Origin: an uncultured delta proteobacterium
Lineage (GTDB): Bacteria; Desulfobacterota; Desulfobacteria; Desulfobacterales; JAHEIW01
Direction of reading: 5' to 3'
DNA length: 64,000 nt
Assembly: GCA_963706575.1 (NCBI GenBank)
Contig: CAVPNL010000003.1
Location: forward strand, 491,912 to 555,911
Position numbers and translations under genes: made by a program
The notes under the pieces: generated by a model
Databases searched by the model: none
Told to the model about the DNA's origin: nothing
Seen by the model: only the letters and a program-made list of their open reading frames with translations
Shown: positions 47,394-61,083 of the stretch, piece after piece
Numbering within the stretch: position 1 is the first letter of the stretch
Layout of the letters: the number at the start of each line of letters is the position of its first letter

Positions 47394-47607
47394 TTGAAGG
47401 ATATTGAGGTCAGGGTCATTGACAACGATATTGAAAAGGCCATCCGGATCTTGAAAAAGAAGATTCAAAACGATGGGCTGTTCAAACGGCTTAAGCTAAA
47501 AAAGAGTTACGAAAAGCCGAGTGAATACAGACGTCGCAAGATGCGTGAGGCCTTAAGAAGGGAACGGCTAGCTCGCTGCCCGCGCTGCCAGATATCGCAG
47601 AAGATAG
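47394..47607 (+). CDS. rpsU: 30S ribosomal protein S21; +1 frameshift near 47574 makes an apparent fusion to folC
   Basis: IEKAIRILKKK..YEKPS motifs; removing one base gives ...AARAARYRRR* ending at TAG 47607. Confidence 0.9.
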
Positions 47608-47627
47608 GGCCTAACTGCAATAAAAGG

Positions 47628-47663
47628 AAACCCGGCAAGAAAAGCCTTTTTGCCGGGTTTTTT
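47628..47663 (+). terminator. Intrinsic terminator after rpsU
   Basis: AAACCCGGCAA-loop-TTGCCGGG followed by a T tract. Confidence 0.75.
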
Positions 47664-47669
47664 ATGTTT

Positions 47670-48974
47670 ATGCCGCCAAAAGAAACTTATAATAGCTGTT
47701 TGAAGACCATGTATGCGCTGAGAAGATTTGGGATCATACTTGGTCTGGGTACCATCAAAAACATTTTAAGCGCACTTGGCGATCCTCAGAACGATTTTAA
47801 CTGCATCCACATAGCGGGAACAAACGGAAAGGGCTCGGTTGCATCCGCCCTCTCCACCATTTTACACGAATCCGGTTATCGCGTCGGTCTTTATACCTCA
47901 CCCCATCTGGTTCGTTTCAATGAGAGAATCTGTATCAACAACCGTCAGATCGCAAATAAAGATGTCGTAAAATCCTATCAGGCGGTCAAGCGTGTCCACC
48001 ACGGGGACCGCAGCCCGACGTTTTTTGAATTTTCCACCGCCATGGCACTTTATACGTTCAGCAGACAAAAGGTGGACTGGGCGGTGATCGAGACCGGTAT
48101 GGGGGGACGCTACGATGCCACCAACATCATAAAGCCGGCCATTTCGATCATTACCAACGTATCCATGGAACATCGGGATTATCTGGGCAGCACCATAGCT
48201 GAGATTGCACGCGAAAAAGCCGGTATCATCAAGCAAATGACACCGGTGGTCACCGCCGTAAAACAAAAGCAGGCCCGATCTGTCGTTCGGGAAGTCGCCC
48301 AAAAAAAATCTGCACCGCTATTCATGCTGGGGAAAGATTTCGCGGTCAGACAACATCCGTCCGGACATTTTTCTTACTATGGCTTTGAAAATACCTGGCG
48401 CCATTTAAAGACGCCTTTGTTGGGACACTATCAGGTTCAAAATGCGGCGCTCGCCCTGGCAGCCAGCGAACTGTTAACCAAAAACAACGTCTCAATTTCC
48501 CGTGAAAGTATTAAACAGGGCCTGGCAAACACCCGGTGGCCCGGAAGACTGGAAATTGTCTGCGACAATCCTTTGGTCATCCTGGACGGCGCTCACAATT
48601 TAATTGCCGCACGCAATCTGGCCAGATTCCTGGCCGATAACCTGGCTAAAAGGCGCATCACCCTGGTCATCGGAATATTGGATGACAAACCCTATGAGTC
48701 CATGCTTAAAAGTTTACTGCCCCAATGTTGCCGGGCCATTATCACCCGGGCCAAAACCGGTCGGGCATTAGAACCTCAGCGCCTTTATAAAACGGCCCAA
48801 AAACTCGTTTCAGATGTATCGATTGTACCTGATGTAGCCGATGCATTTCGACAGGCGGTTGAAACCGCAGCATCAGATGAAGTGATCTGTGTTGCCGGTT
48901 CCCTGTATGTCGTCGGCGAAGCCAAAGAAGCCGTCGAGAAAGGCCTTATCAAATCTATAAAAACACATAAATAG
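47670..48974 (+). CDS. folC: Bifunctional folylpolyglutamate / dihydrofolate synthase
   Basis: HIAGTNGKGS, YTSPHL, ETGMGGRYDATN, LDGAHN, AGSLYVVG. Confidence 0.95.
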   Translation: MPPKETYNSCLKTMYALRRFGIILGLGTIKNILSALGDPQNDFNCIHIAGTNGKGSVASALSTILHESGYRVGLYTSPHLVRFNERICINNRQIANKDVVKSYQAVKRVHHGDRSPTFFEFSTAMALYTFSRQKVDWAVIETGMGGRYDATNIIKPAISIITNVSMEHRDYLGSTIAEIAREKAGIIKQMTPVVTAVKQKQARSVVREVAQKKSAPLFMLGKDFAVRQHPSGHFSYYGFENTWRHLKTPLLGHYQVQNAALALAASELLTKNNVSISRESIKQGLANTRWPGRLEIVCDNPLVILDGAHNLIAARNLARFLADNLAKRRITLVIGILDDKPYESMLKSLLPQCCRAIITRAKTGRALEPQRLYKTAQKLVSDVSIVPDVADAFRQAVETAASDEVICVAGSLYVVGEAKEAVEKGLIKSIKTHK

Positions 48975-49032
48975 ATTTGATCTAATTGATCTTGACTTAT
49001 ATAACCGCATAAATTAATTAATTTGTTAAAGC

Positions 49033-49178
49033 TCGAGGGCTTTGGGAAGCGTTCAATTTTGTTCAAGTTCAAGGAAGGCGAAGATTTTAACCGGAGGCAT
49101 ACTTAAAGTATGTTGAGGATTAAAATCTGCGTCTGACGCAGAAATTGGGCAAAAGGGGACGGTTCCCAGAGCCCTCGA
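49033..49178 (+). mobile_element. 146-bp hairpin element of the same structural family with a different terminal stem
   Basis: TCGAGGGCTTTGGGAA / TTCCCAGAGCCCTCGA ends; internal GTTCAAG..AAGGCG..GCATAC-loop-GTATG..ACGCAG..ATTGGGC core. Confidence 0.75.
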
Positions 49179-49181
49179 TAG

Positions 49182-49257
49182 GCGCCCGTAGCTCAGGGGA
49201 TAGAGCGTCAGCCTCCGGAGCTGAAAGCCGCTGGTTCGAATCCAGCCGGGCGTACCA
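49182..49257 (+). tRNA. tRNA-Arg (anticodon CCG)
   Basis: Cloverleaf: GCGCCCG acceptor stem, anticodon arm TCAGC-CTCCGGA-GCTGA, GGTTCGAATCC T-arm, encoded CCA. Confidence 0.96.
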
Positions 49258-49591
49258 ATAAAATAAAGGGTTTAGAAGATTTTCTAAACCCTTTTTCTTT
49301 TTTAAAAACTATATTTCCAACCCTATTTCCAACCTAAAGAAGAAATAGCGGGGTAATTCAGGGTAAGTCAATAGGAAAGGTAAATCTTCGGTTCGGCAAA
49401 AGAGGAAGGTTTAAACGACAATCAGCTTTTTTAATTGAAATATTAAGCTTTCAAATCTGCAATTATCCCGAAAGCTATATTTCGATCTGAAATCCTAAAA
49501 TTTTCTTACACTTTAGAAGATGCATTTATAGCCGAAATGTAAAGTAAAAGTAATTTGGGGACTGCGTTATGAAATCCAAATATTTGAGAAA

Positions 49592-49690
49592 TTAGCATGC
49601 ATCCAAGTCATCTGCTAATTTTAAAGCACCCTCGAAGTCAAAATCTTCGGCCAATTGAGCGATTCGATATCTAACCTCTGAACCAGGAGA
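49592..49690 (-). pseudogene. C-terminal remnant of a gene, possibly a hybrid sensor kinase
   Basis: Translates SEVRYRIAQLAEDFDFEGALKLADDLDAC* with no upstream body; family resemblance judged by eye. Confidence 0.35.
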
Positions 49691-49908
49691 CTGACACGTT
49701 GCACCATTTTTTAATCCAACAAACCCAAGTAACCGAGTTACTCAACAAACCTGCGTCTCTACTGCCCACTCAGTCCCCAGCACTCAGTCCTAAGTTCTTT
49801 TTGGATTTTCCAAATTCGACTCGGCTGAGCTCGTCGCGGGCCATATTCCATTGTCGCGGAAAAAATTGATTATTATGACTTGACAAGGGCTTCGATTTGA
49901 CGGAAAAG

Positions 49909-49926
49909 TAACCAAGCGCTTGGTTA
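49909..49926. promoter_or_regulatory. Perfect 18-bp palindrome, candidate TetR (KstR2-type) operator
   Basis: TAACCAAGCGCTTGGTTA, 24 nt downstream of TTGACA (49880); contains AnCAAGnnCTTGnT. Confidence 0.7.
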
Positions 49927-50144
49927 ATAATTCGAATTCGCTGCGCAACAAACCGAATTTAGATCAAGCACTTTCCCTCCCGAATGATCATTTACCCAAT
50001 TAGGATAAGCCAATAATTATGCAAAAATACATTGTCTTTAAGATCCTTATCTCTGTGAATCGGTTTCGGCCGTGGTTTTCATTTTATAGAGAAAAAGCGT
50101 TTTCTTCATTCAGTTTCCCAAACCGTCTATTTTCATAAAAAAGG

Positions 50145-51302
50145 ATGGACGCAATGCAACAGACAGCATCTAAGAACAAGTACATCGTTGGTAATGTGGA
50201 AAGATTCGATCAGAAAAATGTGATGTATAACCGCGTAAGATGGGATCCGAAAGTCGAAGAGTTAGGGCGCAAATTGTATGGAATTCTCGCGCCCGGTGAA
50301 CAACCGGGTTATACTCTCGTTGATCGGGCGTTACAAAATTCATACTGGTATGTCGAGATGGCCTATGCTCATGGCCATATTGTGCATGGCCTGGATCTAT
50401 TTTCATGGGAGAAAAAACCCTATTCCGATTGTCTCCGTCTTCCCAAAGGCGAAAAACTTGAATCACCTGACCCGGCAGATATGGCCTTAAAGGTAAAGAA
50501 GGCCGCCAAAGGTCTGGGGGCTGATATGGTCGGGATATGTGAAATGGATCAGCGCTGGATTTATTCGCATTGGTATAACCTGCATAGCCGCGAAAGCGGG
50601 CCTCTCGAAATACCTGAAAACTGCAAATGGGTCATCGCCATCGCTGTGGAGATGGATTATGAAATGTTTCGCACGTCCCCGACGGAGATAGAATCAGCGG
50701 CAACAGGTTTGGGTTATTCACGAATGGCTTTTGTTGCGGGTTCTCTGGCCCATTTCATTCGCAATCTAGGTTATACAGCCATCGCCTGCGGAAATGATAC
50801 CGGCTTGAGTATACCCATCGGAATTGATGCCGGATTGGGTGAATTAGGAAGACACGGCCTTCTGATTACCCCGAAGTTCGGGCCACGGGTGCGATTATGC
50901 AAAGTCATTACCGATTTGCCCCTGGCAACTGATGCACCCATAGAGTTTGGCGTCGCAAAATTCTGCGATCTATGCAAGAAATGCGCAGAAAACTGCCCTT
51001 CCCAGGCCATTCACCACGAAGAGCGCACGACTGAGGCCCTGAATATCTCAAACAATCCGGGGGTATTAAAGTGGCCGACGGATGGAGAAAAGTGCTTTAA
51101 ATTTTGGGCCAAAAAAAATAATACATGCTGCGGCAACTGCATCCGGGTGTGCCCTTTTAATAAACCCGATACCCGGTTTCATCGCATGGTCAAATGGCAT
51201 GTAAAGAATCTGCCTCAATTTGACAACATCTACAAATGGATGGACGATGTTTGCGGTTATGACAAACAGATTGATGCAGATGACTGGTGGAAACAGCCCT
51301 AA
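50145..51302 (+). CDS. rdhA: Reductive dehalogenase homologue 1 (cobalamin, 2x[4Fe-4S]); no TAT signal
   Basis: RFDQKN, GADMVGICEMDQRWIYS, GLGYS, DAGLGELGRHGLLITPKFGPRVRLCK, CDLCKKCAENCP and CFKFW..CGNCIRVCP. Confidence 0.85.
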   Translation: MDAMQQTASKNKYIVGNVERFDQKNVMYNRVRWDPKVEELGRKLYGILAPGEQPGYTLVDRALQNSYWYVEMAYAHGHIVHGLDLFSWEKKPYSDCLRLPKGEKLESPDPADMALKVKKAAKGLGADMVGICEMDQRWIYSHWYNLHSRESGPLEIPENCKWVIAIAVEMDYEMFRTSPTEIESAATGLGYSRMAFVAGSLAHFIRNLGYTAIACGNDTGLSIPIGIDAGLGELGRHGLLITPKFGPRVRLCKVITDLPLATDAPIEFGVAKFCDLCKKCAENCPSQAIHHEERTTEALNISNNPGVLKWPTDGEKCFKFWAKKNNTCCGNCIRVCPFNKPDTRFHRMVKWHVKNLPQFDNIYKWMDDVCGYDKQIDADDWWKQP

Positions 51303-51401
51303 TTGAGCAATTAACGCTCAATTTATTTTCAACTCAATTCAGGTATCAATATCAATCGCAATTCGTGATGAATTCGCCATAGTGTTGCAAGGAGACAAAA
51401 A

Positions 51402-52607
51402 ATGAAATCAAAGCACCAGGGCTCAGATCTCAAGCCTGCGCCTCCTGAACTGATTAATTCTATACCGAAGCAAGCCCATAAAGGTGCCAGCCGGTATGTT
51501 GTCGGAGAGATCACAAGATTTGATCAGAAAAATGACATGTTTAAGCGGCCCCGATGGGATCCGGAAGTTGCGTTCGGACAAAAGTACTATGGTATGATTA
51601 TGCCCAAAGATGACAAGGCCGGCTATACCCTGCTTGAAATGGCCTTCAAAAATGCATCCTGGTGGGTGGAACTGGCTTTTGCCCAGAGTGTACTGGGCGG
51701 CAAGATGGGGCTGCTGGAATGGGATGCCAAGCTGTGGGGCGACAGCCGACCGCCTGAAGGCCTAAAATGGAATGTCGATGATCCGGTTAAAATGACAAAG
51801 ATCGTTAAGAAAGTAGCTGGTTTTTTTGGAGCGGGTTCGGTGGGCGTTTGTGAACTCGATCGGCGCTGGATCTATTCCCACTCTTATCATTTAAGAACCA
51901 TGGAGCATCAGCCGGTGGAGATTCCTGAAGAATGCAAGTATGCGATTGTGACCACCGTGGAGATGGATTACGAAGCATACAAGGGTTCGCCGAATTATAT
52001 CCAGGGGGCGGCCACAGGATTGGGTTATTCCGAAGAAGCCATCACCGCCGGGCTGGTCGCCCAGTTCATTCGCGGCCTCGGCTATAAAGCGATACCAAAT
52101 GCAAATGACACCTCCTGCAGCGTGCCCATCGCCATCGATGCCGGCTTGGGAGAGTTGTCCCGTGCCGGTTTTCTGATTACGCCTAAATTCGGCCCACGAG
52201 TCAGGATCAGTAAAATTTTTACAGACCTTCCTCTGGTCCCGGACAAACCCGTAGATTTTGGGGTGTGGGACTTCTGCAGAATCTGCGGCAAGTGTGCCGA
52301 TCATTGTCCGGCGAATGCAATCATGCCCGGGGAACCGACAACACAAACAAATAACATCTCCAATCGCGAGGGACTGCTGCGCTGGCCGGCCAATGGTGAA
52401 AAGTGTCTGGGATTCTGGGCAGCACAGGGAGGCGCCTGCGGCAACTGTATTCGCGTGTGCCCTTTCAATAAACCGGACAACTGGTTTCATCGCAGTATCA
52501 AATGGGGAGTCGATCGTGTTCGTTCGATGGACAAATTGTTTCTCTGGGGAGATGATATCGTTGGCTACGGCAAACAGATGAAAGCTGAAAAATTCTGGGA
52601 TGTCTAA
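51402..52607 (+). CDS. rdhA: Reductive dehalogenase homologue 2; no TAT signal
   Basis: RFDQKN, GAGSVGVCELDRRWIYS, GLGYS, DAGLGELSRAGFLITPKFGPRVRISK, CRICGKCADHCP and CLGFW..CGNCIRVCP. Confidence 0.85.
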   Translation: MKSKHQGSDLKPAPPELINSIPKQAHKGASRYVVGEITRFDQKNDMFKRPRWDPEVAFGQKYYGMIMPKDDKAGYTLLEMAFKNASWWVELAFAQSVLGGKMGLLEWDAKLWGDSRPPEGLKWNVDDPVKMTKIVKKVAGFFGAGSVGVCELDRRWIYSHSYHLRTMEHQPVEIPEECKYAIVTTVEMDYEAYKGSPNYIQGAATGLGYSEEAITAGLVAQFIRGLGYKAIPNANDTSCSVPIAIDAGLGELSRAGFLITPKFGPRVRISKIFTDLPLVPDKPVDFGVWDFCRICGKCADHCPANAIMPGEPTTQTNNISNREGLLRWPANGEKCLGFWAAQGGACGNCIRVCPFNKPDNWFHRSIKWGVDRVRSMDKLFLWGDDIVGYGKQMKAEKFWDV

Positions 52608-53175
52608 AGAAGACAAGAAAAAAAAGATTTTAGATACTGCCGCAAAACTTTTCGCCGAGAAGGGCTTCGAGAATACAACCACGCGAGACATCTGCAAGGC
52701 CACCGGCATGAGTCATGCAATGATATATTATTATTTTGAGGATAAAGAATCCGTTCTCAATGAAATCCTGGAGGATATCTTAAGCGACGGTTTGAAGCAA
52801 ATTAAGAAAATTGCGCAAAGCCCAAAAAGATCGAAAGAAAAATTAACCGCCATCACCCATATGTATGCCCGTTACCATGTGGTCAAAATCGATAAAATGA
52901 AGGTTTTCGTACACGACCAGAAACCGCTTAAGCCGGAACACAAAATAAGGGTGGCCGCGTACCAGAAGGAGTATCTGAATATCCTGGAAGATCTATTGAA
53001 AAAACTCAGAGAAGAAGACGCAATTGTTGACGTGGATACAAAGGCGGCGGCCTTTACCTTCTTCGGAATGGTTCACTGGGCATACCGCTGGTATGATCCA
53101 AAGGGCAGGATCAAGCCGGATCAGTTATCCGAAATTATCAATAGAATCTTCACCAAAGGTGTCTATAAGCATTAA
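52600..53175 (+). CDS. TetR-family regulator (KstR2/PaaR-like C-terminus)
   Basis: HTH ILDTAAKLFAEKGF..TTRDIC..IYYYF; GMVHWAYRWYDPKG C-terminal motif; overlaps the rdhA2 stop. Confidence 0.9.
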   Translation: MSKEDKKKKILDTAAKLFAEKGFENTTTRDICKATGMSHAMIYYYFEDKESVLNEILEDILSDGLKQIKKIAQSPKRSKEKLTAITHMYARYHVVKIDKMKVFVHDQKPLKPEHKIRVAAYQKEYLNILEDLLKKLREEDAIVDVDTKAAAFTFFGMVHWAYRWYDPKGRIKPDQLSEIINRIFTKGVYKH

Positions 53176-53232
53176 ACAGCATGTATTCAATGGGGTCGTT
53201 AAACGTTAACCTTTTTAATAAGGAGGTGATTC

Positions 53233-54537
53233 ATGAAGCGTTGTCAAGCAAAAAAAGGACGTTCAAGGTTTACGGTTTATGTGAGTCTGTTATTCGTATC
53301 CGTCGCTTTATCATTCGGAACCTTCGGCCTTTTAGAAAAAGAAGCTCTTGCGGCTGATCCCATTATCATCGGATCCCCGTTGGCTATGGGATTCCCACAG
53401 GGCGTGGGAGCCAAGCAAGGATTTGATCTGGCGGTAGCGGAGATCAACAAACAGGGCGGGATTAAGATCGGAAATGAGCGTCGCTCGCTTAAGCTCGTGG
53501 TCATGGATACGCGCGACCTGGCCGCCGGTGTGCCGGTGAGCGAATCGCTCCTCGCCGTTGAACGGCTTATTTTAGGAAAGAAAGCCAACTTTCTCCTCGG
53601 GGGGCCCATTCGTTCGGAAGCAGCCCTGGCGGTCATGGATTTGATCGCGCAACATAAAAAGATCAATATCATAACGGCCGGAGCCATAACCCCCGGGTAC
53701 ACCGCGAAAATAGCCAAGGATTATGACAAGTATAAATACCTGTTCAGGCTTTCAGCGAATGCGATTTCATTTGTGGGTGAAACACTTCAATTTTTTGCAT
53801 CGCTCAAGAAACAATATGGGTATAACAATGTTGCCTTTATGATCCAAGATGTCATGCACGCCCGCCAGATGGCGAAATTCGTGCAGGGCGGCCTTACCAA
53901 AATGGGCGGCTGGGAAATGAGTGCGCCCCTCATTTATCCCACAGGATCAATGGATTATTCCATGGGATTGCTGAAGGTAAAGCGTCAAAAGGCCCAGATC
54001 ACCTTTGTATGGATGGATCACCCGGAAGTCTCCATTCTCATCAAACAGGCCTATGATTTCAAGGTGCCGACTTTGCTGGCCGGAAAACAGGGGGGCTTGC
54101 AGGATCCCGGATTCTGGAAGGCAAGCGAAGGAAAATGCCAGGCTGCGATCAGCACGGAGTTGAAGGCCAGTTCTCTGCCTTCTCCGGCGCTTTCCGGGAG
54201 CCAAGAATATTTTGATTCACATGTCAAAATGTATGGTAAAGGTCCCATCGATGAATGGGCAGGAATAAGCTACATCAGTGTTTATGTCTTGGCCGAGGCG
54301 ATTGAACGTGCGGGTTCGATTGATACAGATGCCGTCCTTAAGGAACTTGAGAAAACAGATCGCCCCAGTGTTATCGGCCGCATTCGTTTCGATCCCAAGA
54401 GCCATCAGGTGATAGAGAAATTAGACCCGGCCGAGGGTGTCATATCCATGTGGTCACAATGGCAGGATGGAAAGCGGGTTCCGGTCTTTCCTCCCAAAAT
54501 CGCCAGCAAGGTCATGGTATCACCCTGGGCAAAATAA
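53233..54537 (+). CDS. Liv-type (HAAT) ABC transporter substrate-binding protein
   Basis: Signal peptide, LAVAEINKQGGI, EAIERAGS motifs. Confidence 0.88.
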   Translation: MKRCQAKKGRSRFTVYVSLLFVSVALSFGTFGLLEKEALAADPIIIGSPLAMGFPQGVGAKQGFDLAVAEINKQGGIKIGNERRSLKLVVMDTRDLAAGVPVSESLLAVERLILGKKANFLLGGPIRSEAALAVMDLIAQHKKINIITAGAITPGYTAKIAKDYDKYKYLFRLSANAISFVGETLQFFASLKKQYGYNNVAFMIQDVMHARQMAKFVQGGLTKMGGWEMSAPLIYPTGSMDYSMGLLKVKRQKAQITFVWMDHPEVSILIKQAYDFKVPTLLAGKQGGLQDPGFWKASEGKCQAAISTELKASSLPSPALSGSQEYFDSHVKMYGKGPIDEWAGISYISVYVLAEAIERAGSIDTDAVLKELEKTDRPSVIGRIRFDPKSHQVIEKLDPAEGVISMWSQWQDGKRVPVFPPKIASKVMVSPWAK

Positions 54538-54566
54538 ACAGCTGAGATTATTGGGGTACTGCAAAA

Positions 54567-55436
54567 ATGCTAGACATAATCGTTTACGGAACAATAAACA
54601 GCGCCATTCTTGCAGTGATGGCACTCGGATTCGCTCTGGTGTACGGCGTAAGCAGGCTTCCTAACTTCGCCCACGGTGCTTTATATATCCTGACCGGCTA
54701 CACGACCTGGACCTTCATGAACAAGCTCGGGATGAATTACGTCCTGGCCATCATTGCCTCTCTTATTGTGGTAACCGTGGTCGGGGCGTTTATATACCAG
54801 TTTCTTCTCATCCGGGTCAGAGGCATGCCGATATCGGAAATTATGGCTTCATTTGCAATTGGGCTTGCCATAATGGAAACTCTACGCTGGTGGGGTTTCA
54901 TCGGCGAAGCTTATGTTTTGCCCTCATTTGTAAGTGGTGTGGTCCGGATTGGCGATGTTCCGGTAGACTTTCAGCGGCTGATCATCCTGGGCGTGGGCGT
55001 AGTGCTGGTCGTTTTTCTGTGGTTTTTTACGCTTTACACCCGAATCGGATTGGCACTCAGTGCCATCGCCCAGGATGAACACGCCGCCATGATGCTGGGT
55101 ATAGACTCGGACTTCACGGCAACTTTGGCCATGGGGTTTGGTTCGGCTCTGGCCGGCATCGCTGCCGTGGTGATCCTTCCCATTGGAAACATAACCGTAG
55201 AAACCGGATATGAAGTGCTGATCTATGCTGTGGCCGTGGCGGCTATCGGCGGTTTGGGCAGCTGGTTTGGGGCGATACTGGCGGCTTTTCTGATCGGTTA
55301 CGCCCAGATCATCACGGTGGTGTACCTGGCGCCCCAATATCAGATGGTGGTGGTTTTCATCGCCATTATTTTGACTTTCATCATCAGGCCTTCAGGGCTC
55401 TTTGGAAGGCAAAAGGAACTTGAAGAAAGGGTATAA
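54567..55436 (+). CDS. Liv-type ABC permease (LivH-like)
   Basis: ALGFALVYGVSRLPNFAHG, IGGLGS. Confidence 0.9.
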   Translation: MLDIIVYGTINSAILAVMALGFALVYGVSRLPNFAHGALYILTGYTTWTFMNKLGMNYVLAIIASLIVVTVVGAFIYQFLLIRVRGMPISEIMASFAIGLAIMETLRWWGFIGEAYVLPSFVSGVVRIGDVPVDFQRLIILGVGVVLVVFLWFFTLYTRIGLALSAIAQDEHAAMMLGIDSDFTATLAMGFGSALAGIAAVVILPIGNITVETGYEVLIYAVAVAAIGGLGSWFGAILAAFLIGYAQIITVVYLAPQYQMVVVFIAIILTFIIRPSGLFGRQKELEERV

Positions 55437-55439
55437 CGA

Positions 55440-56453
55440 TTGGCATCAAAGGAAAGACGCAAGGAAAGATTAGACCGGGGCATTAAGGTTAGAGCGCAGG
55501 GTGTCTACGCCCTGTCTTCCTTAAAGGAATTGACATACCTGATTATGCCCAGGCTATTTTTAATAACAGGTCTATTACTGGCCCCTGTGGCAATGCCTGA
55601 TCTTTACTGGCAAAGGGTTATCTGCATGATGTGCATCTTTGCCCTGCTGGCGCTATCGTTTGACTTCCTGGCACATTTTACAGGTTTGGTTTCTCTGGGG
55701 GGTGCTCTTTTTATCGGGCTTGGCGGTTATATATCGGGGTCTCTAAATTCTTACCTCGGGTTAGCACCCATATTCTCGATCCCGATCGCCACGGTGGTGG
55801 GTGCTTTGATCAGCACCTTGCTTCTGCTTCCCTGCCTGCCTCTGCGAGGTATCTATTTTGCCATTGTAACCCTCATGTACCCTCTTTTATTGGCCCGAAT
55901 CATTCCGGCCCTTAATATTCTCGGCGGCACGGATGGTATCGCGGGTATCAAAACATTCCCCAATATATGGGTTGCTTCCTATGTGGTTGTCGGCGTAACG
56001 ATTATTGCAGTGTTTGCTTTGCGGAGATTGGTTACCGAGGACTACGGGTTGGTCTTGCATAGTATAAAAGACAACGATCAGGCCGTTCAGGCTTCTGGTA
56101 TCGATATTACGCCTTACAAAGCGCAGGCTGTATTTATCGCCGCCGCCGGTGGAACCTTTGCTGGGGCCTACCTTGTCCATTTATACGGCTGGGCCGGGAT
56201 TTCTTTGTTTGCTCTGGATTTTTCGATACTTCCGATTGCGGCAACCGTGGTGGGCGGAGTTGGGACCCTGGTAGGCCCGATCATTGGGGCCATCATTTTA
56301 ACACCGATATCTGAATCGCTGCGGGATTTCGGGACGTTGCGGATCGTTTTCTACAGCCTGGTTTTATTAGGCTTTATTTTATTCATACCCGAAGGATTAA
56401 TGAACTATTTGGATCGTAAATATCACCAATTTGAGCGCTGGGCAGACGTATGA
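55440..56453 (+). CDS. Liv-type ABC permease (LivM-like)
   Basis: TGLVSLG, LRGIYFAIVTL, VVGGVGTLVGP. Confidence 0.9.
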   Translation: MASKERRKERLDRGIKVRAQGVYALSSLKELTYLIMPRLFLITGLLLAPVAMPDLYWQRVICMMCIFALLALSFDFLAHFTGLVSLGGALFIGLGGYISGSLNSYLGLAPIFSIPIATVVGALISTLLLLPCLPLRGIYFAIVTLMYPLLLARIIPALNILGGTDGIAGIKTFPNIWVASYVVVGVTIIAVFALRRLVTEDYGLVLHSIKDNDQAVQASGIDITPYKAQAVFIAAAGGTFAGAYLVHLYGWAGISLFALDFSILPIAATVVGGVGTLVGPIIGAIILTPISESLRDFGTLRIVFYSLVLLGFILFIPEGLMNYLDRKYHQFERWADV

Positions 56454-57220
56454 ATCCGGACAATGAAATAATTCTAAAAGTAGAAGGCCTTCACAAGTCT
56501 TTTGGCGGTGTCACTGCCGTGCACAATGTAAGCTTTAAGCTGCACAAGGGGGAGGTATTTGGGATTATCGGCCCCAACGGCTCGGGGAAAACAACGCTGG
56601 TCAACCTGATTACGGGTTTTGTTAAGCCCGATGCCGGCGAGGTGTTCTTCAGGAACAAAGAGATTACCCGGCTGAAACCCTGTAAAATCGCCGACCGGGG
56701 AGTGACCCGAACCTTTCAAAATATCAGGCCGTATTATTCCTTGCCCGCATTTAAAAATCTGATTGCACCGCTGTGTTCTCCACGCGTTAAACGGGCCAGC
56801 GGGGGCAAGCTTGGAAATCGGGATGCGGTTGCCATCGATCTTTTAGAGGAAATCGGCTTTGAACGTGACGCATACGTTCCATACAAACTGGCATCTGCCC
56901 TTCCCCAGGGTTATCTCAAACGTCTCGAGTTGGCTCGCTGCATTGCCTTAAGACCGGAGATTATTATTGCGGATGAACTTTTCTCAGGTTTGAGTATGAG
57001 TGAGATCGCTACCATGGTGCCGATTGTGGAGCGGCTGCAAATGGACGGCATCACCATGATCATGATTGAGCACCGGCTCAGGGAGCTGTTTAAAGTCGCC
57101 AATCGGATCATGGTATTGAATTTTGGTGTCAAAATTGCCGAAGGCTCGCCCGATGAAGTTGTCGAGAACGAGGGGGTCAAGCAAGCGTACTTCGGAAGAG
57201 AACGAAAGGTACCCGCTTAG
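56450..57220 (+). CDS. Liv-type ABC ATPase (LivG-like)
   Basis: GPNGSGKTT, RTFQN, IEH. Confidence 0.92.
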   Translation: MNPDNEIILKVEGLHKSFGGVTAVHNVSFKLHKGEVFGIIGPNGSGKTTLVNLITGFVKPDAGEVFFRNKEITRLKPCKIADRGVTRTFQNIRPYYSLPAFKNLIAPLCSPRVKRASGGKLGNRDAVAIDLLEEIGFERDAYVPYKLASALPQGYLKRLELARCIALRPEIIIADELFSGLSMSEIATMVPIVERLQMDGITMIMIEHRLRELFKVANRIMVLNFGVKIAEGSPDEVVENEGVKQAYFGRERKVPA

Positions 57221-57224
57221 GGCC

Positions 57225-57971
57225 ATGCTTGAAATCAAAGATCTAATGGTGTTTTTTGAAAATGCACTGGCAATAAACAATGCCAGTATTACGGCTGAAG
57301 AAGGCAAAATTACGGGTATTTTTGGTTCCAACAGCGCCGGCAAGTCTACGATGATGTATGCGATTTCAGGTATCATTCTGGATATTAAGAAAAAGGCGGA
57401 AATGAGGGGCGGTGAGCGCATAAACCTATTTGGCGAAATCCATCTCAACGGGGAAAACATCAAAGATTTGAAAGCCAGCCAGCGCGCAAAGAAAGGGATA
57501 ATCCTTTGTCCGGAAAGACGCCGGGTTTTTGCTGAAAGTACAACATTAACGAACCTGAAAATGGGCGGACATTTGGCCAGTCGCGCGCAGGCCAAACAAA
57601 CCCTTGAATATGTATTCCGCCTTTTTCCGAATCTAAAAAGATGGCGGAAAAGGGAAGCGGGCTTCTTAAGCGGGGGCGAGCAGCAGATGCTGGCCATCGG
57701 TCGCGCCTTAATGGCCCAGCCCAAATTGCTATTACTGGATGAACCTCTGATGGGGTTAAGCCCGCTTATGGAGGAAAGCCTGGTTAATGCGATTAAAGAC
57801 ATAAACAACCAGACCGGTATTAGCGTTCTGGTTACAGAGCAATATGCAAGACCCATATTGCCGATAATCGATTACGGTTACGTGCTGGAAAACGGAGGGG
57901 TGGTCCTGGAAGGCACCGCCGAGGAACTCATGGAAAATCCGGATATGCGAGCGGCCTACTTCGGAATGTAA
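57225..57971 (+). CDS. Liv-type ABC ATPase (LivF-like)
   Basis: GSNSAGKST, LSGGEQQMLAIGRALM, LLDEP; start at ATG 57225. Confidence 0.92.
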   Translation: MLEIKDLMVFFENALAINNASITAEEGKITGIFGSNSAGKSTMMYAISGIILDIKKKAEMRGGERINLFGEIHLNGENIKDLKASQRAKKGIILCPERRRVFAESTTLTNLKMGGHLASRAQAKQTLEYVFRLFPNLKRWRKREAGFLSGGEQQMLAIGRALMAQPKLLLLDEPLMGLSPLMEESLVNAIKDINNQTGISVLVTEQYARPILPIIDYGYVLENGGVVLEGTAEELMENPDMRAAYFGM

Positions 57972-58027
57972 ATACAAGCGGTGTTGGTTTTGTGAGAAAC
58001 GCCTTGAGCAGTTGAGGAATCCTATCG

Positions 58028-59683
58028 ATGACAGATTCAGCCCTAAAAAGTGAATATATATTTAGCGGCCTTGAAAGGATGAGCCTGAAATATCCGGATA
58101 AGACGGCATTAATCTTTCTGGGTGAGAAATTTACTTTTGCCAAATTGCAAGAGTGCGTCGATAGATTCGCTACGGCCCTGGCTGACCTGGGAATTCGAGA
58201 TAACGATAAATGTGTGATCTACATAGCGAATTGCCCCCAGTGGATTATCACGTATTTTGCGCTTCAAAAAATCGGAGCCGTCCCGGTACCCATCTCCCCT
58301 ATTTATACGCCCAGAGAAATTGAATATATGATCAACGATTCCGAAGCCGCAGCGGTGATCTGTCAGGACGTCAATTTTCGGTACATCAAACAGGTTTTTG
58401 CCGCTACCGGCTTGAAAAAAATCATCATCACCAATCTTGTTGATTTGTTGCCCTGGTGGAAAAAAATATTCGGAAGACTGCTCGATAAAATCCCAACCGG
58501 TGCCGTTGAGCGAACGCCGGAGGTATTTTTCTTTAAAAACCTGCTGCGCAAATATCCGCCTCAGCCTCCCCAAACAAATATTGATCCTAAAGAGCACCTG
58601 GCTTACATCATGTATACCGGTGGAACGACCGGATTGCCCAAGGGTGTACCAGGCAGCCATGCCACCTTGCTTGAATATTCAGACGGCTATGCTGAAATTA
58701 CCAGGGGATATTTGCAGGAGGGAGAAGAGACGCTGGTCCTGGTAAACCCACTTTTCCATATCATGGGACAGGGTACGATTACCGGATTGGGATTCAACCA
58801 GGGCAACACGACGGTTTTAATGCCTTTTCCGGAAATCGATGCCATACTCGAGGCCATCCAAAAGTACAAAGGTAGTTTGTTCCTGGGAGTTCCGGCACTT
58901 TATCGTATGATTTTAGAAAACGACCGGGTGGATCTATATGATATATCTTCTCTGAGATACTGCTGGGTGGGTGGCGATGTGCTTCCGTCCGAGATACACA
59001 AACGCTGGAAGCAAAAATTTAAAATGCCCATTTATCAAACATTTGGCACAACTGAGGCGGTCTTTGTTTGTGCGAGCCCATTAAATTGCGAACCGCCTCA
59101 AGGAAGCATGGGATACCCATTTCCCTTCATTAAATTTAAGCTGGTAGATCCGGATACCTTAGACCCTGCTGCACCAAATACAACAGGGGAGCTTTTGACT
59201 TCATTTGTAGATGGCACCAAAAGCTATTGGAAAAAGCCAGAAGAAACCGCCTCTTCCTGGGTCGTAATAGACGAAGAGCGATGGTATCGAACAAAGGATT
59301 ATGTCCGCATGGGCGAAGATGGCATGCTTTATTTTGTTGATAGAGCTGCAGATACGATAAAGTATAAAGGTTACAAGGTTTCCTGCTCGGAGATTGAAGC
59401 AGTTTTGCAAGACCACCCCGCCATAACGGACGCCTGTGTTGTGGGGGTGCCCGATGATAGAGTAGGGGAACGCATCAAGGCCATGGCCGTTCTTAAAGAA
59501 GACGCCCGCGGCGTTAGTGCCTCTGAACTGATTGGATGGTGTCGAGATCGGCTGGCACCATACAAAGTTCCAAAGTATATAGAATTCAGAGATATGCTGC
59601 CCAAGTCGAAGGTCGGGAAGTTGCTGCGACGCGAAATCAGAGATGAGGAGCGCAGGCGCACAAAAAAAGTAAAGAAAAAGTGA
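58028..59683 (+). CDS. Acyl-CoA ligase / AMP-binding enzyme
   Basis: YTGGTTGLPKG, FGTTE, PKSKVGKLLRR. Confidence 0.92.
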   Translation: MTDSALKSEYIFSGLERMSLKYPDKTALIFLGEKFTFAKLQECVDRFATALADLGIRDNDKCVIYIANCPQWIITYFALQKIGAVPVPISPIYTPREIEYMINDSEAAAVICQDVNFRYIKQVFAATGLKKIIITNLVDLLPWWKKIFGRLLDKIPTGAVERTPEVFFFKNLLRKYPPQPPQTNIDPKEHLAYIMYTGGTTGLPKGVPGSHATLLEYSDGYAEITRGYLQEGEETLVLVNPLFHIMGQGTITGLGFNQGNTTVLMPFPEIDAILEAIQKYKGSLFLGVPALYRMILENDRVDLYDISSLRYCWVGGDVLPSEIHKRWKQKFKMPIYQTFGTTEAVFVCASPLNCEPPQGSMGYPFPFIKFKLVDPDTLDPAAPNTTGELLTSFVDGTKSYWKKPEETASSWVVIDEERWYRTKDYVRMGEDGMLYFVDRAADTIKYKGYKVSCSEIEAVLQDHPAITDACVVGVPDDRVGERIKAMAVLKEDARGVSASELIGWCRDRLAPYKVPKYIEFRDMLPKSKVGKLLRREIRDEERRRTKKVKKK

Positions 59684-59801: not shown

Positions 59802-60155
59802 ATGGAACCTAAAACCAGTAAAAGCCCTGAATCTGTGGTTAGAGAGATCAAACGCAAAACCCGCCGCAAATTCAATTCTGAAGAAAAAATCAGGATCATT
59901 TTAGAAGGCCTGAAGGGCGAAGACAGCATCGCCGCTATCTGCCGTCGAGAGGGCATTGCCCCAAGTCTGTATTACAAATGGAGCAAAACTTTTTTACAAG
60001 CAGGCAAACGCAGGCTGAAGGGGGATACGATTCGTGAAGCGAACAGCGATGAAGTAAGTGAGCTGCGCCAGGAAAATGACCAGTTAAAACAACTGGTAGC
60101 GGAATTGAGTCTGAAAAATCGTGTGCTAAAAAAAAGTTTGAATGGGCTGGAGTGA
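59802..60155 (+). CDS. IS3-family transposase OrfA
   Basis: RRKFNSEEKIRIILEG..SIAAICRREGI..LYYKW HTH and leucine-zipper tail. Confidence 0.88.
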   Translation: MEPKTSKSPESVVREIKRKTRRKFNSEEKIRIILEGLKGEDSIAAICRREGIAPSLYYKWSKTFLQAGKRRLKGDTIREANSDEVSELRQENDQLKQLVAELSLKNRVLKKSLNGLE

Positions 60156-61083
60156 AGCTGAGGCGATATATGCGTTACAGTCAGTCAGAGAAGATGCAGA
60201 TCATCCGGTTGGTAGAAGAATCTCCGGTGAGTATAAAGCAGACGCTTTTGGAGCTGAACATCAATCGCAGTACGTTTTACAAGTGGTATCGGCGGTATCA
60301 GGAAGGAGGCTTTGAAGCACTGGCCAATCGATACCGCCCACCGAGGCAATTCTGGAATGCGATACCACCTTGGGAAAAGCAGCGTGTGGTTGAAACGGCT
60401 CTTGAACACCCGGAAAAGTCACCCCGTGAGCTGGCCTGGTACATTACGGATACCCGTGGGTATTATATATCTGAATCAACGTGTATACCGGATACTGAAG
60501 GCCAATGATCTGGTAACCAGCCCGGTATACACAGTTATAACGGCACAGGACAAGTTTCCCAATCCAACCAAAGCACCTAATGAGCTGTGGCAGACGGACT
60601 TTACCTGGTTCAAGGTCGTTCACTGGGGCTGGTACTATCTGAGCACTATTCTTGATGATTATTCACGCTATATCCTGGCCTGGCAGCTGTGCACCGGCAT
60701 GTCCACCGACGAGGTCAAGGAAACGATTGAAGCGGCCATTGAGTTTACCGGCTTTCGGGATCCCAGGGTGATACATCGCCCCCGGCTGCTCTCGGATAAT
60801 GGCCCCTGCTATGTTTCTAAGGCGTTAAAAGAATATCTGGAGCAGGAAGGGTATTGCCCATACCCGCGGCAGGCCGTATCACCCGATGACCCAGGGTAAA
60901 ATCGAGCGCTATCATCGCTCGATGAAAAATATCCTGCTTCTTGAAAATTATTACAGTCCCGATGAACTAACGGATCAAATTGATCTTTTTATCGACTATT
61001 ACAACAATGATCGCTATCATGAAGCGTTGAATAATTTGACTCCAGCTGATGTATACTACGGTATCATAAACCGAAATATTTAA
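60152..61083 (+). pseudogene. IS3-family transposase OrfB (rve integrase core), frameshifts near 60482 and 60852, truncated after PADVYYG
   Basis: WQTDFT, DDYSRY, SDNG, QGKIERYH motifs spread over three frames. Confidence 0.85.

Follow-up and report, generated by a model that had tools for sequence, protein, structure and literature searches.

A 64,000-nucleotide stretch of contig CAVPNL010000003.1 from an uncultured delta proteobacterium (the window, whose positions serve as coordinates throughout) contains nine consecutive plus-strand genes. They encode two reductive dehalogenase homologues (RdhA1 and RdhA2), a TetR repressor, a solute-binding protein (SBP), the LivH, LivM, LivG and LivF subunits of an ATP-binding cassette (ABC) importer and an acyl-coenzyme A (CoA) ligase (Table 1). 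Judging from gene content and sequence, we think it probable that this block is a dehalogenation add-on to an uptake and activation cassette for aryl acids, and that it works on the free acid, with CoA ligation following. As a whole, the block is best explained as a catabolic module that moved horizontally and is controlled by TetR. An earlier reading of the same DNA (the sequence-only reading) had described a tight, co-oriented run of these genes, and the list of open reading frames (ORFs) in the window reproduced all of its coordinates and the gene order. Successive genes from rdhA1 to the ligase gene are spaced by 99, -8, 57, 29, 3, -4, 4 and 56 bp. Translation probably begins at 50154 for rdhA1 (the database entry has 382 aa) and at 57225 for livF.

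Two predicted cytoplasmic RdhA proteins with a PceA-like fold

Both RdhA proteins passed the NCBIfam RDH profile TIGR02486 (262.3 bits for RdhA1 and 251.3 bits for RdhA2; cut-off 160.35) and failed the QueG profile TIGR00276 (47.9 and 41.9 bits; cut-off 200). They are 52% identical to each other, and both contain the CxxCxxCxxxCP and Cx(11-12)CxxCxxxCP motifs, confirming the earlier description of short proteins (385 and 401 aa) that keep RdhA motifs and both iron–sulfur motifs. A twin-arginine (TAT) motif search combined with 19-residue Kyte-Doolittle hydropathy found no RR in the first 60 residues of either protein, no in-frame extension upstream and no hydrophobic helix (maximum 0.99 for RdhA1 and 1.22 for RdhA2). 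Hydropathy stayed below 0.7 across the first 80 hydropathy windows, so neither protein is of the transmembrane (hybrid) RdhA type. A search of 48975-53240 for small hydrophobic plus-strand ORFs was negative, so there is no rdhB beside rdhA1 or rdhA2, and Pfam detected no fused reductase domain in either protein. Both hallmarks of a respiratory RdhA, the TAT signal and the adjacent rdhB anchor, are thus missing, and the three absences claimed from sequence (TAT signal, adjacent rdhB and fused reductase) all held. These data support the assignment of RdhA1 and RdhA2 as true RdhA family proteins by profile, predicted to be cytoplasmic.

The best solved relatives in a PDB sequence search were PceA proteins (E 9e-69 and 3e-64), then NpRdhA (1e-36) and then QueG (8e-8). 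An AlphaFold model was built for RdhA1 only, from a 149-row alignment, with a pLDDT (predicted local distance difference test) score of 97; a 24-row alignment had given 49. The model has the nitroreductase-like B12 fold and matched PceA 8q4h with Z 45.4 and a root-mean-square deviation of 2.1 Å over 372 residues, NpRdhA with Z 35, and QueG with Z 15 over approximately 210 residues. A QueG-like identity, which the sequence-only reading had named as grounds for abandoning its proposal, therefore conflicts with both profile and fold. Counted on sequence alignments, RdhA1 Y191, N217, R250 and W321 align with PceA Y246, N272, R305 and W376, which we take to be functional residues, and all four are kept in RdhA2. 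Facing the cobalt, the Tyr and the basic residue conserved in the family are present as Y191 and R250, with equivalents in RdhA2. At the Arg and Trp positions, BhbA and the Nitratireductor enzyme have Lys and Arg; K488/R552 of NpRdhA is presumably the phenolate-binding pair. The pocket of RdhA1 and RdhA2 is thus predicted to be PceA-type.

Trees were built with FastTree (129 rows) and with IQ-TREE in quick mode under LG+G4 (48 rows), and approximately unbiased (AU) tests were run on a 32-row subset. In both trees, RdhA1 and RdhA2 fell within a group of short TAT-less sequences placed among TAT-bearing RdhAs; support for this group was 0.98 in the 129-row tree and only 81-84 in the 48-row tree. 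The RdhA/QueG phylogeny, proposed earlier as a check, was decisive in one direction only: union with BhbA/NpRdhA was rejected (AU p 1.1e-4), but union of the short TAT-less clade with the QueG rows, which are long outgroup branches, gave p 0.578. The clade is large, with at least 120 RdhA1 matches (those listed all at least 45% identical) and 184 proteins matching RdhA2 at E 1e-140, and a pattern search found the TAT-like motif missing in 216 of 217 short-clade proteins. Two other ideas about the pair were discarded. Sister pairing of RdhA1 and RdhA2, as expected from a recent tandem duplication, was rejected (AU p 2e-7), and an obligate heterodimer of RdhA1 with RdhA2 was not favoured, since RdhA1-type genes stand alone in loci L124, L125, L129 and L133.

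The block occupies a single insertion

Thirteen folC regions from relatives were considered; in five the sequence stopped ahead of the tRNA or shortly past it, one belonged to a different genus and carried other genes, and the remaining seven congeners were compared. In 7/7 congeners the epimerase gene is the next gene after tRNA-Arg(CCG), at a distance of 209-533 bp versus 12,450 bp here. Besides the nine genes, the insert contains only an IS3-like element, which is single-copy in the assembly; the GC content of the insert is like that of the host. No att repeat, duplicated tRNA end or integrase was found at the insertion. In run X11, from another study, contigs 89-93% identical to the block bridge rdhA1-rdhA2, rdhA2-tetR, SBP-livH and livH through the ligase gene; the other three of the four runs compared (X1, X4 and X9) gave short pieces only. 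RdhA1, RdhA2, LivM, ligase and TetR proteins at 88-97% identity have longest contigs of 30146, 10924 and 9912 bp in common (the first two for the ligase), and an rdhA1-rdhA2 tandem at 72/70% identity was seen directly in locus L126. Together, the one insertion, one candidate operator and co-occurrence in 88-97% identical strains support the view that the nine genes form a single unit. A terminator scan found no terminator-like site between rdhA2, tetR and SBP, the promoter and terminator scans giving chance-level counts (14 versus 16.2 and 13 versus 12.8). Upstream of the insertion, rpsU and folC form a single open frame in the assembly (47394-48974); this is probably an assembly error or a lost stop, because other contigs differ by one base at 47573 within the frame.

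Table 1 Features of the block and its boundaries (window positions)
Feature	Position	Strand	Description
tRNA-Arg(CCG)	49182-49257	+	Left boundary of insertion
Terminator-like hairpin	49265-49294		After tRNA-Arg(CCG)
Candidate sigma-70 -35 hexamer, perfect	49880-49885	+	From sequence scan; absent from promoter-scan list
Perfect 18-bp palindrome	49909-49926		Candidate operator of cluster TetR; fits KstR2 operator motif
rdhA1	50145-51302	+	385 aa; TAT-less PceA-type corrinoid/2x[4Fe-4S] reductive dehalogenase homologue
rdhA2	51402-52607	+	401 aa; same family as RdhA1, separate subclade
tetR	52600-53175	+	TetR repressor with TetR_C_24 (KstR2-like) C-terminal domain
SBP	53233-54537	+	Liv-type solute-binding protein (Peripla_BP_6); family common in Desulfobacterota
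livH	54567-55436	+	ABC importer permease
livM	55440-56453	+	ABC importer permease
livG	56450-57220	+	ABC importer ATPase
livF	57225-57971	+	ABC importer ATPase
CoA ligase	58028-59683	+	AMP-forming acyl-CoA ligase
IS3-like element	59802-60899	+	HTH_Tnp_1 and rve, broken into several frames; right part of insertion

A candidate operator and the importer-ligase cassette

The cluster TetR has a TetR_C_24 domain (92 bits; cut-off 26.4) and matched PDB entries 3vpr, 5k7f and 4w97. The TetR repressors KstR2, AibR and PfmR, which bind acyl-CoA esters, likewise have this domain, but the identity of the cluster TetR to them is low. The palindrome at 49909-49926 fits the KstR2 operator motif of PMC3068626, which has five matches in the 5.67-Mb genome; perfect palindromes of 18 bp or more number 79. 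It comes after a perfect -35 hexamer, for which the scan found no consensus -10, and it stands upstream of rdhA1, not of the SBP gene, which would tie the dehalogenases to the repressor if the palindrome is the operator. No copy of it with up to three mismatches was found upstream of related rdhA loci, none of which carries the cluster TetR. At positions 116010-116270 of contig C1 of the host genome, G000 (locus L001), a 51% identical TetR paralogue stands divergent from an HcrA-like molybdoenzyme gene, with two different palindromes between them.

The ligase reached none of the NCBIfam equivalog cut-offs (its best result was 371 of 705 on PRK08314) and scored 234 of 375 bits on the benzoate-CoA ligase family TIGR02262. 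For neither the SBP nor the ligase did PDB and Atlas searches point to a ligand. SBP matches at E 1e-90 occur in 82/401 genomes of the phylum, and ligase matches at E 1e-150 in 20/24 genomes of the family (best 59% identical).

Gene contexts of related RdhA proteins

We assembled 84 loci with a short-clade RdhA, which dereplication at 90% reduced to 46, 29 of them with at least 5 kb of flank; their gene labels come from BLAST to our own reference set and are approximate. None of the 46 has a TAT motif or an rdhB-like ORF. Among the 29 well-flanked loci, 13 have an importer, six a CoA ligase and 21 a Mo/W enzyme. Liv genes occur in six and a ligase in four of the nine loci closest to RdhA1 (58-73% identical), whose neighbours include HcrA-like molybdoenzymes, amidohydrolases and an enoyl-CoA hydratase; the molybdoenzymes scored 571-701 bits on the 4-hydroxybenzoyl-CoA reductase profile (cut-off 995). 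Judged by gene content, the importer-activation-dehalogenase logic reappears with different components. This pattern is in keeping with a modular add-on and with a substrate that is a carboxylic acid, probably an aromatic or heteroaromatic one.

Proposed pathway and alternatives

In the pathway that we propose, the Liv importer would bring in a carboxylic acid that carries halogens; the likeliest kind is an aromatic or heteroaromatic acid with bromine, iodine or chlorine. RdhA1 and RdhA2, as soluble cob(I)amide enzymes, would strip halogens from the free acid, the paralogues perhaps serving different positions or congeners, and host ferredoxin or flavodoxin may re-reduce them through their two [4Fe-4S] clusters. 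The ligase would then form the CoA ester of the halogen-free acid. This ester may free TetR from the palindrome before rdhA1 and would enter CoA-dependent catabolism of the host, for example by a benzoyl-CoA route. The net effect would be that a dehalogenase add-on broadens the substrate range of an ordinary acid uptake and activation cassette. Dehalogenation is placed before ligation because so few of the well-flanked clade loci have any ligase. The sequence-only reading had likewise run from acid import through cytoplasmic dehalogenation to CoA-dependent catabolism; the RdhA fold and residues, the linkage and the benzoyl-CoA ring-opening hydrolase gene (oah) of the host speak for that route, but the gene order is narrowly distributed and the cassette is mostly RdhA-free.

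Several observations weigh against our proposal. The importer-ligase cassette occurred without rdhA within up to 20 kb in 12/12 loci fetched, and genome G101 has a cassette 66-77% identical with no RDH match over the cut-off. Liv and ligase genes occur together in only 3/29 well-flanked clade loci, and those in the RdhA1-subclade loci encode proteins only 28-33% and 21-28% identical, respectively, to those of the window; related RdhAs thus pair with non-orthologous transporters, ligases and molybdoenzymes, which speaks against a widespread fixed pathway. No TetR homologue is present in any of the 29 loci, a lone 18-bp palindrome is expected by chance in an 890-bp intergenic region at a rate of approximately 1%, a weak hairpin lies at 51301-51323 between rdhA1 and rdhA2, and the block contains no electron donor gene. 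The tetR-SBP junction was not bridged in the X11 pieces listed, the evidence that the matching longest contigs are the same block is circumstantial, and co-occurrence at 88-97% identity may reflect shared ancestry. The exact gene arrangement is rare, because RdhA1 matches in 60 relatives did not exceed 54% and RdhA2 matches in 400 genomes of the order (with at most four candidates scored per genome) did not exceed 57%. As for the gene order that was to be sought in other genomes, the genes recur together in 88-97% identical strains but the order is not conserved beyond this narrow lineage, and the expected co-conservation of the RdhAs with transporter and ligase stops at the same border, beyond which RdhA1 kin use other Liv and ligase genes.

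The order of steps could be reversed, with the ligase acting first and the RdhAs dehalogenating a halo-acyl-CoA ester in an otherwise identical module. Thioesters ease ring reduction, and a ligase is co-located here and in four of the nine RdhA1-subclade loci, there beside 4-hydroxybenzoyl-CoA-reductase-like molybdoenzymes and an enoyl-CoA hydratase; we nevertheless regard this order as improbable, since a ligase is missing nearby in 23/29 clade loci and the buried pocket of characterised reductive dehalogenases (RDases) receives small free molecules. There is an equally small chance that the RdhAs are corrinoid reductases for a non-halogen substrate, cleaving C-O, C-S, C-N or N-O bonds during catabolism of the imported acid. 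The very varied catabolic operons in which the clade sits, a fold that also supports epoxide reduction, as in QueG, and the AU p of 0.58 for joining the clade with QueG-like rows, with their long branches, are all compatible with that role, and we know of no clade member that has been assayed. Against it, RdhA1 is nearer to PceA than NpRdhA is (Z 45 versus 35, with QueG at 15), the halide-elimination residues are conserved, and TAT-less RDases of several anaerobes, including Clostridioides and archaea, are listed as active after heterologous expression in PMC13101508.

The RdhAs might also be real dehalogenases that serve detoxification or provide a sink for electrons in the cytoplasm, while importer and ligase would be a separate cassette that only shares the insertion. 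Both roles were proposed in PMC4959651, the cassette is normally RdhA-free and the parts of the block have different nearest relatives. This seems quite unlikely given that rdhA2 and tetR overlap by 8 bp, that 57 bp and no terminator-like site separate tetR from the SBP gene, and that RdhA1 kin independently recruited another Liv importer and ligase. Far less probable still is a respiratory RdhA with a remote anchor or a tRNA epoxyqueuosine reductase: although the nearest solved relatives are respiratory PceA enzymes and the host genome has no QueG over the cut-off, the proteins have no TAT signal, transmembrane helix or rdhB, reach 48 and 42 of 200 bits on the QueG profile and stand in a catabolic context. 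A broader idea, to which we give a modest chance while holding it doubtful, is that small soluble corrinoid dehalogenases of the PceA type, as a third lineage apart from BhbA/NpRdhA, are the standard entry of strict sediment anaerobes to natural organohalides, acting here on a halo-acyl-CoA ester or a non-halogen leaving group; to our knowledge, neither chemistry is known for any RdhA.

Comparison with known systems

The respiratory PceA enzymes of Desulfitobacterium (8q4h) and Sulfurospirillum multivorans (4uqu) resemble the window's proteins in fold (Z 41-45, with 33-38% identity in the structural alignment), in the two iron–sulfur motifs and in the Tyr/Asn/Arg/Trp pocket residues, whereas RdhA1 and RdhA2 have no TAT signal or RdhB, are approximately 80-120 residues shorter and stand in a catabolic gene context. 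BhbA of Comamonas 7D-2 and NpRdhA of Nitratireductor are alike in being cytoplasmic and TAT-less and in the logic of dehalogenation before catabolism, and bhbA too adjoins a solute-binding protein gene. In contrast to these enzymes of 700-1070 aa, RdhA1 and RdhA2 belong to another clade, come from an anaerobic host, have no extra N-terminal domain or fused reductase, and carry Arg/Trp instead of Lys/Arg.

Closer precedents come from marine anaerobes and are compared here by description. A Desulfatiglans-related marine cell has two adjacent cytoplasmic rdhA genes without rdhB, with dehalogenation for downstream catabolism given as a possible role (PMC6129605), and a catabolic role was proposed for cytoplasmic rdhA genes of Dehalococcoidia DEH-C11 and Desulfobacula toluolica Tol2 (PMC4959651). 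SAG2 and SAG3 of the former study, the SAG2 pair being adjacent, and DEH-C11/Tol2 are likewise TAT-less and RdhB-less; in the portions available, an importer, ligase, operator and mobility are given for none of them, unlike the window's block, and DEH-C11/Tol2 form the sister clade of BhbA/NpRdhA, which RdhA1 and RdhA2 do not. The 'cytosolic' rdhA-like genes of cold seeps, known from Desulfobacterota and Chloroflexota and neighboured by regulators and beta-oxidation genes, make up a group defined around BhbA-like references (PMC12219181). The supplements of PMC6129605 and PMC12219181 may contain members of the RdhA1/RdhA2 clade. Further TAT-less rdhA copies were noted in PMC12090745, PMC6299228, PMC7031245 and PMC6737245, and the membrane-helix (transmembrane/hybrid) type was defined in PMC6797604; PMC8163825 contributed nothing further.

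We found no description of an rdhA-Liv-CoA-ligase operon in the literature searched, most subscription papers being outside the search. The block is not a new category, because tandem cytoplasmic catabolic rdhA genes were already proposed in 2016-2018, so the label 'new pathway' given by the sequence-only reading claims too much; the block is a PceA-type, minimal, anaerobic and ligase-linked form of catabolic RDases that have been proposed but tested little. New here are the 12,450-bp insertion, the candidate operator, the co-recurrence of the genes, the predicted PceA-type pocket and the separation from BhbA/NpRdhA. The value of the block lies in testability rather than surprise: TAT-less rdhA genes, which many sediment anaerobes carry, are often counted as signs of organohalide respiration, their role has been only a proposal since 2016, and the block offers three independent ligand read-outs for the substrate (binding protein, ligase and repressor). 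Small soluble single-domain RDases are also attractive for expression and bioremediation chemistry. If our proposal is true, mobile modules let sulfate reducers draw carbon from organohalides, and the reading of rdhA counts in the halogen cycle changes.

Other rdhA loci in the clade and the host

The commonest context of the clade (L142, L163, L165, L110, L119 and others) is a conserved divergent cluster. One arm encodes LysR, a GGR-like flavoprotein, RdhA, an HD protein, a 679-aa molybdoenzyme and UPF0261, and the opposite arm two phytoene-dehydrogenase-like proteins, a 140-aa orphan, an SDR, two 205-aa orphans and AFOR. This cluster, better conserved than the window's block, looks like an undescribed anaerobic pathway. 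A second recurring context (L104, L107, L113, L247 and L248) combines aldehyde dehydrogenase-like, GATase, RidA, OYE, TRAP importer, rdhA and 768-aa molybdoenzyme genes, sometimes with a nitrilase. The molybdoenzymes beside rdhA (L105:4633-6669, L104:10773-13076 and L129:2716-4845) have a GxxC-type ligand segment, which we take to differ from the formate-dehydrogenase type; they are therefore probably substrate-transforming enzymes and not electron donors. In L158, L159, L173 and L174, rdhA adjoins PPDK_N/PEP-utiliser genes and UbiD, as in phenol carboxylation, and by this analogy the context is possibly a halophenol route. L134:568-3663 holds three TAT-less rdhA genes of other subclades in tandem. 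In P0218 and P0071, a clade RdhA is fused to a C-terminal part of approximately 300 aa with weak DUF6937 and iron–sulfur matches, possibly a built-in electron-transfer module.

In the host genome (92% complete), dsrA, cobS and oah score over their cut-offs; from this and from the names of homologues we infer a Desulfobacterota sulfate reducer; its nine matches to the 4-hydroxybenzoyl-CoA reductase profile are all below the cut-off. Its six RdhAs all lack a TAT signal and two have N-terminal helices (hydropathy 2.4-3.0); the four rdhA genes besides rdhA1 and rdhA2 are likewise in catabolic clusters. Contig C1 (527 kb), with 8/9 HcrA/Xdh-like genes, many Liv systems and four rdhA genes, is a large catabolic region. 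A second catabolic rdhA cluster there (L004:14674 to L005:17913, approximately 306-326 kb) begins with GntR, nitrilase, cupin and SBP genes, a membrane-helix RdhA (461 aa) and liv genes (livH split in two frames), and continues with EthD, OYE, a TAT-less RdhA (426 aa, 43% identical to RdhA1) and UbiD; it also has a facing ligase, HGD-D and a BadF-type activator, with oah approximately 10 kb beyond. Another cluster (L002:2774-18032, 127-142 kb on C1) encodes a molybdoenzyme, an NpRdhA-like short RdhA (395 aa), GntR, a membrane-helix RdhA (482 aa), a phenylacetate-CoA-ligase-like protein, an HD protein, MttB, FrhB and IorAB, a composition that suggests halogenated aromatic amino acid catabolism.

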